NCBI GenBank assembly: GCA_963757655.1
Contig: CAVWSQ010000001.1
Span: 1,970,996-2,034,995, forward strand
DNA length: 64,000 nt
DNA from: an uncultured Acidobacteriota bacterium
GTDB lineage: Bacteria; Acidobacteriota; Vicinamibacteria; Vicinamibacterales; CAVVIG01
Direction of reading: 5' to 3'
In this document: positions 44,901-46,896 of the stretch, in pieces
Numbering within the stretch: position 1 is the first letter of the stretch
How the letters are laid out: each line of letters begins with the position of its first letter
The notes under the pieces: generated by a model
Databases searched by the model: none
What the model was told of the DNA's origin: nothing
The model's input: the letters and a program-made list of their open reading frames with translations, nothing else
Translations under genes and position numbers: made by a program

Positions 44901-46896
44901 CAACGCGGTGCGGGGGCGGCTGACGGCGGCGCTGGCGCACCTGGAGGAACCGGCGCCGGCCGCCGACAACGCCGAATGGGCGCAGGTCGCAACCATTGTC
45001 GCGGACGTGCTCGACCTGGCCGACAGCGTCAGCGATCTGCTGATGGCCGAGGGCACGCATCAGATCGTGCAGGGCAACCTCGATCGCGCCGCGGCGGCGA
45101 TGGCGGTGGCCGACAAACAATCGCTGCCGATCGAGACCGAATTCAATCGCACCCTTCGCGGCGGTGCCGGCTACACCCAGCGCCTGGTTGCGCTCTGTCC
45201 TGGACCGGCGGTCGGGTGGCCGGACGACCGGCGCGCGCGCACCGAGCCGGCGGCCAACGCCTGGCTGGCCGCCATGCTGGGCGATCCGGCGCGCTACCGA
45301 TTCGCCGCGCGTGTGCATCGAGTGGATCCGCAGGGGCATCCGGTGATCGACGCCGGCCTGGTGGTGGTCACCTGGGCGGATCTGGCGCTGTCGCCGCTCT
45401 CGGCGGTGCTGCTGGCGGCAAGCGTGTCGGCGCAGCATCTGTCCGACACCAAAGAAACCGGCTTCCGCAGCGCGCTGGTCGCCGCCTTCACCGGCGCGCT
45501 CGACGATCCGGCAACGGTGGTCGGGCTGGAGATCCAGCAGGAGGCCGATTCGGCGGCGGCGCTGGGACTCGGACATTTCGAAGCGCTGGCGATGACGCTG
45601 AAGGCGATTCTCGACAAGGCCCGGCCGGTCACGCGCAAGGACGTCGTACGTACGGTCGACGAGATTGAAGCGACGCTGCCGGACGAGGGCGAGTTCCCCG
45701 GCGTCGATCGCGCGGAGCTCGAGGCGCGTGCCGACGCGCTGGTCGCCGAGTTCGATGACGCCACCGCCGGTACTGGTCGCGACCGCGGGCGCCGACGCGC
45801 TGCTCACCGCGCTCGCGGCGATGGACGACTTCCTGCCGGCGATCGGCTGGCCGGCCGAAGTGTTTGCGATCGACGCGGCCGGCGCCGACCCCGGGCTGCG
45901 CGACCAGCGGGCCGCCGCCGCGAAAGCCGCGCTGCAACAGATACTCGAGGCGAAACAGGACGCCGTGCACGCCGACATTCCGCTCCTCGACGGCCAGGGC
46001 GTGCCGAGCCACGCGCAACGCGTGCAGAACGCTGTCGATCGCATCAAGCGGCTGCTGGGGAAAGATTTTCCGGTGATGCTGCGCTGCAGTCTTGGGCCCT
46101 ACGCCGGCGAGTTCGACGCATCGCTGGCCGAGCAGGCGGCTCTCACGCACGGCGATCCGTGGCGCATTCACGGCTGGCTCACGCAGCTGGCGCGCGTGCG
46201 CGAGGGGGCGCAGCGGTTCATCTCGGGCTTGTCCGCTCACGAGGCGCTGGTCGCTCCCGGTCAGGCCAGCGACTTCAAGCTGGTGCAGTTTCCGCACCGC
46301 CCCGACCAGATCTGGGCGGCGCTGCCGGAAGCCTGGGTGGAACCCGACGGCACCCCGTTCGATCCGACCCAGGTTCCCGAGGAGCTGCACGACTACCTCG
46401 CGCAGCGCCCGGGCGCGGTCTACAAGGACATTCATCGCGTGGCGCCCGATCTCACCATCGCGTTCCATGCGCCGGCTGGGCTCGACGCGCTCGCTGCGGA
46501 TCAAACGATTGCCGGCCTGGTGTGCGACGAGTGGCCCGAGTTCGTGCCCGATCCCTATCAGACCGCGGCGATCGGCTTCCACTACGACGCTCCCGGTGCG
46601 CGCCCGCCGCAAAGCGTGCTGCTGGCGCTGCCCCCCACCTCGGTCAGGATGCCTGGACCTTCGATGATCTGGTCGACGTGATTCACGAAGCGTTCGACCT
46701 CGCCAAGCTGCGTGCGGTCCGGCCGCGCGATCTGGCCGGCGGACTGGGCGCGCTGCTGCCGGGAAATTATCTGCCGCATGCCTACACCGACGACCTGCCG
46801 AGCGTGCAGGTGCTCAAGATGCTGCGCGACGCGCAGGCGCGAATGGTCTCGGAGATCGGCAGCGAGGCGGCCCACTTCATTCTTGGCAAGATCTGA
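41977..46896 (+). CDS. giant uncharacterised protein 3 (nominal 1639 aa), coiled-coil N-terminus; internal segment about 45760-46635 is really encoded in the +1 frame
   Basis: Open frame with an AAGGA SD-like site upstream. Real-looking protein for aa 1-1260 and the last 85 aa. Between them the nominal frame gives Arg/Gly/Ala junk with poor GC3, while frame +1 (track ORF 45665..46681) gives protein-like sequence with GC3 near 90%. Confidence 0.8.
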   Translation: MARIDLDLSGLQAARQEMAALTARQRTLDAAVASAQAALDGALRGGASPNLVAPLRQSVQQAESSRGELIAQQRAAQSRIDAVAAGLLLQRDPALMVQALDAKHPIALLPMRLETRYVPVGAPTSLRIRVYPDDVNTIEHVPALTPDEQQAGVNYWTARFAHQDDEAARILRDLATVFGRGRAAWIVRVLTPDNPVPGAGEQAAPVFPQTDTIDSRAKATRAMLMPDRWCAIGYAAGRREVFRVWGNRIPDELLLSPDWLATDAPEALLGGDRAWMVDFDAAVAKGMAVEITQEAITAIARSQHAVPFNLATGTLERLVVFGLEWTRTADQSAADLTDLLAAHRDSTGLAFAPLGTPTNNTEAAASGFSPADERTPPQPPATAGTDKDALQLLTWALGLAPDALPADNIANAHLAEQRTALHMMNVLWRGTFADYLLELWNPPLDEDARFLKTPALYATRGYAVSYVRATGALPLVRVGKQPYGILPVVGKRFVSSGSAVETAIGNLLAVLRPMWELASRAVPTMTDGSVDKAKDIVQTAAWSQTAFYRDKDAGKALCKIPNAFTDAQQASRGGLIRTLLAAVGVTDYWLAHIYSCSDFLPDPPYSAGYLAGVPWVLADAKNPKQEAADDVTFSAANNYLAKMAAASIQSPTAAGPLLYANQSGPALLQALVSYSIQKEKGDAVEGFALSSVAVNQVVSLAATRMPYVEATLDNEAMFTVQTHKELANVSLASVTGKATLGEHVANTLTVPFEAKPASAYRAADMLSRSVDHIVAPTRNLAAVKLSLDYLAGRSVGELNIAFRSTLDCFSYRLDAWLAARANRRLEQMRDQSPAGVYVGGFAWVENLKADTRPDSEGYLLAPSLGQAASAAILRSGFMANHESGAFDIALDSHRTQRAVGILQGLTRDQPLAALYGYRFERGLRDAELGRFIWPFRLAFPWRPAGAAPTDESSEAIGARDVVDGVALLDAWESDPNAVRGRLTAALAHLEEPAPAADNAEWAQVATIVADVLDLADSVSDLLMAEGTHQIVQGNLDRAAAAMAVADKQSLPIETEFNRTLRGGAGYTQRLVALCPGPAVGWPDDRRARTEPAANAWLAAMLGDPARYRFAARVHRVDPQGHPVIDAGLVVVTWADLALSPLSAVLLAASVSAQHLSDTKETGFRSALVAAFTGALDDPATVVGLEIQQEADSAAALGLGHFEALAMTLKAILDKARPVTRKDVVRTVDEIEATLPDEGEFPGVDRAELEARADALVAEFDDATAGTGRDRGRRRAAHRARGDGRLPAGDRLAGRSVCDRRGRRRPRAARPAGRRRESRAATDTRGETGRRARRHSAPRRPGRAEPRATRAERCRSHQAAAGERFSGDAALQSWALRRRVRRIAGRAGGSHARRSVAHSRLAHAAGARARGGAAVHLGLVRSRGAGRSRSGQRLQAGAVSAPPRPDLGGAAGSLGGTRRHPVRSDPGSRGAARLPRAAPGRGLQGHSSRGARSHHRVPCAGWARRARCGSNDCRPGVRRVARVRARSLSDRGDRLPLRRSRCAPAAKRAAGAAPHLGQDAWTFDDLVDVIHEAFDLAKLRAVRPRDLAGGLGALLPGNYLPHAYTDDLPSVQVLKMLRDAQARMVSEIGSEAAHFILGKI

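Follow-up and report, generated by a model that had tools for sequence, protein, structure and literature searches.

Why does a gene with one uninterrupted open reading frame (ORF) appear to encode part of its protein in another frame? The question is raised by a stretch of 64,000 nucleotides from an uncultured Acidobacteriota bacterium (contig CAVWSQ010000001.1, positions 1,970,996 to 2,034,995), hereafter called the window, and more precisely by gene 3 of a four-gene cassette, whose nominal ORF of 1639 codons (41977..46896, + strand) has been deposited as protein P0005. An earlier note on this DNA had claimed that ~290 codons of gene 3 are encoded in the +1 frame inside the open nominal ORF, between two compensating indels. 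It had listed sequencing errors first among the possible causes, without ranking them against a real double mutation, and had placed programmed recoding last. The hidden double frameshift is confirmed here. Judging from the assembled sequences, it very probably reflects a pair of compensating long-read consensus errors and not biology.

The frame switch is visible in the composition of the gene itself. The GC content at each nominal codon position was computed in 150-nt bins along gene 3. From the start of the gene to 45726, positions 1, 2 and 3 have GC contents of ~0.72, 0.50 and 0.87; across 45727-46626 the values become ~0.85, 0.78 and 0.48, and 3' of 46627 the first pattern returns. The wobble position is thus shifted onto nominal position 1 between 45727 and 46626, indicating that the true frame there is +1. 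A seven-state frame hidden Markov model (HMM) assigned 45766-46652 to frame +1 and both flanks to frame 0, all within one stop-to-stop ORF. The +1 ORF of this region (45665..46681) translates to an ordinary protein, ...PVLVATAGADALL...LLALPP, and the nominal translation over the same span is rich in Arg, Gly and Ala. The claim of ~290 codons in the +1 frame is therefore upheld by the GC pattern, the HMM and the homologs described below, and the GC pattern and the HMM both return to frame 0 after the run of six C, where the nominal frame had been described as protein-like again. Neither the frame plot nor the seven-state HMM revealed a second intragenic frame switch in the 64 kb. Apparent frame changes at 1.4, 20.1, 21.4 and 58.0 kb were considered as frameshifts and rejected, as they correspond to gene boundaries.

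The two shift points could be located by comparison with related loci. Over the 4920 bases of gene 3, the alignment with locus L001 (95.3% nucleotide identity) contains exactly two gaps, the window having one base more at ~45767 and one base less at ~46632. A closer comparison is provided by L084, an independent ENA metagenome contig with a Flye-style name that aligns to positions 34103-56881 of the window (22.8 kb) with 99.1% identity. At the first site the window reads GCCGGTACTGG and L084 GCC-GTACTGG (in short, GCCGGTAC versus GCCGTAC), which identifies the extra G as 45769/45770. This GG adjoins the 5' side of, and overlaps, the GTAC at 45770-45773, so that GG followed by TAC occupies 45769-45773. 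At the second site the window reads CTG-CCCCCCACC and L084 CTGCCCCCCCACC, that is, six C (C6, 46631-46636) versus seven (C7); the corresponding sequence of L001 is GCCACCCCAT. The indels are 861 bases apart and of opposite sign (+1, then -1). Removal of G45769 and addition of one C yield a clean 1639-codon ORF. The corrected first site then reads ...AEFDDATAVLVATAG..., with the length and junction spacing seen in the homologs, and the corrected second site reads ...LLALPPHLGQDAWTF..., where the homologs read LPPHLDQDAWTF. The alignments bear out both positions that had been proposed from the sequence, an insertion near 45760-45772 and a base missing from the C6 homopolymer, with the refinement that a seventh C is found only in L084. 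Among the 26 relatives examined at the second site, 24 lack the C run, which is present only in the window and L084, and 16 have CCGCCG at this position. Since no relative beyond L084 has C7, the homopolymer is specific to this lineage.

Gene 3 can accordingly be divided as follows, all on the + strand. The N-terminal 1264 codons (41977..45768) are correctly read in frame 0, as indicated by the phase of GC at third codon positions (GC3), the HMM and the homolog alignment. At 45769..45770, GG stands in place of the single G of the relatives, according to the alignments with L084 and L001, and this extra base moves the true reading to +1. The next 287 codons (45770..46630) encode the true protein in the +1 frame, with an Arg/Gly/Ala-rich nominal frame, as judged from conservation, a fold model and the pattern of substitutions. 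At 46631..46636, the same alignments show C6 in the window versus C7 in L084, the missing base restoring frame 0. The C-terminal ~87 codons (46637..46896) are read in frame 0 up to the stop codon, on the evidence of GC3 phase, HMM and homologs.

That the +1 frame is the real one is most directly supported by the homologs. A search with the frame-corrected protein returned 825 relatives, and the best 120 of them (P0001-P0120), nearly all of ~1640 aa, align with 100% of the corrected query. The identity to the corrected protein is 96% for P0001 (1639 aa) and 81-84% for P0002-P0004. The deposited product of the window, P0005, matches the corrected query with 100% identity but only over 77%; it carries ~290 aa of wrong-frame, Arg-rich sequence, i.e. 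18% of its length. Aligning both translations to homologs, as the earlier note had proposed, thus gives an end-to-end match for the corrected frame and none for the nominal one; homologs of the Arg-rich translation, which would have refuted the note, did not turn up. The nominal-frame 290 aa had no database match at E <= 1e-3 in a search that also missed P0005, although this entry contains the query, which makes the negative a weak one. More generally, negatives from that search with low-complexity queries need caution.

The +1 segment moreover behaves as a normally constrained coding sequence. In an alignment of 46 homologs, the most distant with 37% identity, 27 columns are invariant, and the segment retains all of them. 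AlphaFold2 modelled the 287-aa segment with a mean predicted local distance difference test score (pLDDT) of 79.5, with 242 of the 287 residues at or above 70. Differences with L001 fall mostly on the third positions of the true-frame codons (7, 7 and 27 at positions 1, 2 and 3). Counted by codon, 26 are synonymous and 14 non-synonymous in the segment, compared to 121 and 47 upstream. Relative to L084, the 861-bp segment carries one substitution. Neither the comparisons with L084 and L001 nor the invariant residues give any sign that selection on the out-of-frame segment has been relaxed or altered.

The contig L084 also informs on how the two indels may have arisen. It has both GCCGTAC and C7, and its gene 3 product, P0121, is intact with 1640 aa. 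Between 39400 and 55000, the window and L084 differ by 25 mismatches and 7 indel events, of which 4 mismatches and 4 indel events lie within ~4 nt of a GTAC. Eight of the 27 GTAC sites of this interval are discordant, to be compared with a background of 2.1% of positions that near to GTAC. Several of the GTAC-linked differences consist of A/G or C/T calls, or of a change in the number of G, and affect the nucleotide that directly precedes GTAC. L084 itself carries an additional G in the context of the first site, GCC(G)GTAC, at window position 51000, where it splits a gene into 164 + 199 aa; in the window this gene is a single 368-aa ORF (50389-51495, - strand), for which more than 60 homologs of 354-385 aa match over the full length. 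Similarly, at GTAC(T)CGAG (window 54095) the T is missing from L084; this site lies within a PS_pyruv_trans domain for which the window gives a contiguous Pfam match. ORF-breaking indels at GTAC are thus found in each assembly where the other one is intact, as a technical cause predicts. This discordance suggests that GTAC is methylated in this organism. The tetranucleotide is mildly under-represented, with an observed/expected ratio of 0.74 (0.22 for CTAG); the use of GTAC depletion as a proxy for a restriction-modification system was dropped, the depletion being only mild. As for the 368-aa ORF, it belongs to a ~360-aa protein family in which some members have DnaJ (PF00226), and the window protein itself shows only a weak, sub-threshold Pfam match.

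The window and L084 do not represent the same strain and differ at 12 codons of gene 3. Eleven of these 12 codons lie at 45212-46665, several of them being non-synonymous in one strain or the other, and none lies at 42535-45210. This clustering in the last third of the gene may be due to local microdiversity or recombination. Such microdiversity could itself be the reason for a poorer consensus, or a sign that the region truly differs.

Other differences between the two assemblies were also recorded. At window position 45647 (CGTACGTACG), L084 reads GTGACACGTACG, a 3-nt indel on a pair of GTAC that adds a Thr absent from all homologs and is probably an error of L084 or a strain variant. Single-base differences at 51624 (C4 versus C3) and 53627 (an extra C, GCTAG(C)GAG) are intergenic or nearly so. 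L084 and the window are almost identical over the central 15 kb of L084, on either side of which two blocks (L084 positions 1-5240 and 21000-22812, corresponding to window 34103-39326 and 55134-56881) contain dozens of single-base insertions in L084 and ~2% mismatches. These blocks fragment the DUF6603 gene and the 1147-aa gene of the cassette, both intact in the window, and could represent a low-coverage region or a chimeric consensus.

In order to place these indels in a wider frame, the corrected protein was compared by tblastn with 84 related loci, a frameshift being scored when collinear high-scoring segment pairs lay in different frames. Frameshifted homologs were found at 8 of the 21 loci from metagenome-assembled genomes (MAGs) named 'MFD...bin' (L011, L019, L021, L024, L047, L063, L066 and L073), and at two of the ~60 other loci, one of these two being a run of N. 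Some of the frameshifted MFD loci contain 3-6 shifts in a single gene, and in L063 the frames follow a compensated 2-1-2 order. The MFD MAGs were assembled with Flye from Nanopore data only and polished by one round of Medaka (PMC12313526), and motif-linked purine/pyrimidine ambiguities have been described for methylated DNA sequenced with Oxford Nanopore Technologies (ONT) R10.4.1 chemistry (PMC11610573). Two of the best-matching proteins, P0044 (from L004) and P0117 (from L019), are encoded on MFD MAG contigs. The shortened database proteins P0096, P0110, P0111 and P0117 probably result from errors of this kind. The window lies on a 2.1-Mb contig and shares with P0044 and P0117 its pattern of NCBI/ENA provenance, and the sister contig L084 has a Flye-style name; from this we infer that the window probably comes from a long-read-only metagenome assembly.

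The earlier note had explained the openness of the wrong frame over almost 290 codons by the coincidence of its first codon position with the G/C-rich wobble position of the true frame, which makes T-initiated stops rare, and counts of stop codons in the alternative frames of 31 genes of the window agree with this. Stops number 0.56 per 100 codons in the frame that has its first position on the true wobble position, and 21% of the 290-codon windows in this frame are free of them. In the other alternative frame their density is 2.3 per 100 codons, and the share of open windows is 0%. The genome has a GC content of 67%. As the wobble-aligned frame is open ~0.2 of the time over 290 codons, the open wrong frame needs no further explanation. 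Gene callers were expected to be blind to the problem, and indeed one uninterrupted 1639-codon ORF was called and deposited as P0005.

We propose that gene 3 would be intact and a normal representative of a widespread family of hypothetical proteins of ~1640 aa, and that its deposited consensus would carry two single-base indel errors 861 bases apart. The first error would be a spurious extra G directly 5' of GTAC (45769/45770) and the second an under-called C homopolymer, C7 being read as C6 (46631-46636). The +1 and -1 errors would cancel, so that a gene caller would see one ORF and emit ~290 Arg-rich nonsense residues; the ORF would be called without interruption because the errors cancel and the wobble-aligned frame rarely has stops. 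This explanation is favoured because L084 has neither indel, because both contexts are error-prone and because frameshifts in this gene family are frequent in Nanopore-only MAGs, and these three observations now support the errors that had been listed first but left unranked. Indeed, the indels are absent from the near-identical assembly, from L001 and from more than 100 homologs, and they lie in contexts of raised technical error, namely a C7/C6 run and a GTAC with the discordance described above and a twin error in L084.

Several points weigh against this explanation. It is drawn from assembled sequences, and the sequencing technology of the window is inferred rather than shown. The window is otherwise clean, the HMM having revealed no other intragenic frameshift in 64 kb. 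GTAC methylation is putative, since the depletion of this motif is only mild. The window and L084 belong to distinct strains, which makes a strain-specific mutation conceivable. Finally, two random errors 861 bp apart are a priori unlikely, at ~3% for this window alone. A whole genome should contain a few such pairs of errors, and it was for this feature that the window was selected.

If the two indels were instead real, they would have to be very recent: one frameshift, for example by slippage from C7 to C6, and a second one upstream that restored the frame. The conserved 287-aa domain would have been converted into an Arg-rich, probably disordered stretch, or the gene into an open-looking pseudogene. 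We consider such a history unlikely; its product would be a frame-swap allele that keeps the N-terminal 1264 and the C-terminal 87 residues and was caught before decay. The history has in its favour that the sequence stands as deposited in P0005 and that C7 tracts are prone to slippage, C6 and C7 alleles both occurring across the two assemblies. These assemblies represent distinct strains, their differences within the gene being concentrated here, and 64 kb of otherwise clean sequence argues against a generally error-ridden consensus. However, two rare events would have been fixed while a single substitution arose in 861 bp relative to L084, and the 27 family-invariant residues of the +1 frame would all have remained intact. 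The context of the upstream indel, GCC-G-GTAC, is also that of the extra G that breaks an ORF in L084, and this speaks for a technical cause. Elsewhere the cassette is intact, with no further indel relative to L001 over 9.2 kb, and no other database entry with the junk frame was found by the weak search that missed P0005.

Two further explanations fare worse, programmed recoding and phase variation together retaining only a very small share of the probability. In the former, the ribosome or the RNA polymerase would shift by +1 near 45769 and by -1 at the C run, which could in principle be a slippage site; the perfect conservation of the +1-frame sequence is what recoding would require as well. 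But no shift is needed in any of the more than 100 homologs, an allele 99.9% identical (L084) has neither indel, and the C run is not conserved. By direct reading of the sequence, the first site has neither a stop nor a rare codon in frame 0, and G CCC CCC ACC at the second site does not form an X XXY YYZ heptamer in register. No stimulatory RNA structure was detected downstream of the two sites (z = -0.81 and +1.23, respectively, versus shuffled sequence). We know of no precedent for a gene in which two efficient shifts would go in opposite directions. Comparison with the relatives therefore effectively excludes recoding, whose probability we consider close to nil and which had been rightly ranked last, the homologs being contiguous and no shift signal being found. 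Phase variation would imply a contingency locus where the length of the poly-C tract switches the gene on and off, and the occurrence of C6 and C7 in two near-identical assemblies is what it would produce. We hold this for very improbable: the tract lies at codon 1551 of 1639 (95% along the gene), so that only the last 87 codons would be switched, it is missing from the other relatives, and the non-repeat indel at the first site is left unexplained. A C6/C7 difference between long-read assemblies is, besides, what homopolymer miscalling produces.

Paired consensus errors thus being the preferred explanation, the double frameshift of gene 3 is most probably not a biological feature. Its interest lies in being a clean, fully located pair of frameshift errors that escapes every gene caller and pseudogene filter and that, through P0005, puts Arg-rich junk into the protein databases. 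Any study of the cassette should use the corrected gene 3 (G45769 deleted, one C added at 46631-46636). Long-read MAGs could be checked for similar cases by looking for GC3 phase switches inside ORFs and for discordance between assemblies linked to a short motif, here GTAC. Were the indels real, they would be a modest curiosity about compensated frameshifts.

The cassette comprises three other genes, all intact and on the + strand. Gene 1 (35209..38490) encodes a 1093-aa protein with a DUF6603 match (Pfam PF20248, E = 5e-115). Gene 2 (38487..41930) encodes a protein of 1147 aa, the length also found in L001, L002 and L003, and gene 4 (46916..48820) one of 634 aa, both without known family. The gene order is common to the window, L001-L003 and L084. 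Relatives of gene 3 occur at no fewer than 577 loci (>=577) of a one-genome-per-species collection, in Proteobacteria, Acidobacteriota, Actinomycetota, Chloroflexota, Cyanobacteria, Gemmatimonadota, Nitrospira and others. In Pfam, NCBIfam and the sequences of the PDB, genes 2-4 have no match; the only one obtained for the cassette is that of gene 1 to DUF6603. When the AlphaFold2 model of residues 1265-1551 was compared with the PDB by Foldseek, no structure was retrieved at E < 5, and Rfam and tRNA scans of the window found nothing.

Gene 3 shares features with several known systems. As in programmed ribosomal frameshifting (+1 in prfB, -1 in dnaX, -1 in insertion sequence (IS) elements), the frame changes within one apparent gene, but gene 3 has no conserved site, no stimulatory structure and no conservation in homologs, and it would need two opposite shifts. 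As in phase variation by homopolymeric tracts, the length of a poly-C run differs between near-identical genomes; unlike phase-variable tracts, this run is near the 3' end of the gene, is not conserved and is paired with a non-repeat indel. As in compensated frameshift mutations of protein evolution, +1 and -1 indels bracket a segment in another frame with both protein ends kept. Known paired frameshifts of this type as a rule enclose short segments and are common to a clade, whereas in gene 3 a highly conserved, confidently folding domain would lose 287 codons in one record only, with no sign of later divergence. With consensus errors of Nanopore-only assemblies, gene 3 has in common the contraction of a C homopolymer from 7 to 6 (PMC12313526, PMC11610573). 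The motif errors reported in PMC11610573 consist chiefly of purine/pyrimidine substitutions; of the GTAC-linked events seen here, half are single-base indels. As in such consensus errors, the other indel of gene 3 abuts a motif, the palindromic GTAC, at which the two assemblies disagree 12 times more than elsewhere.

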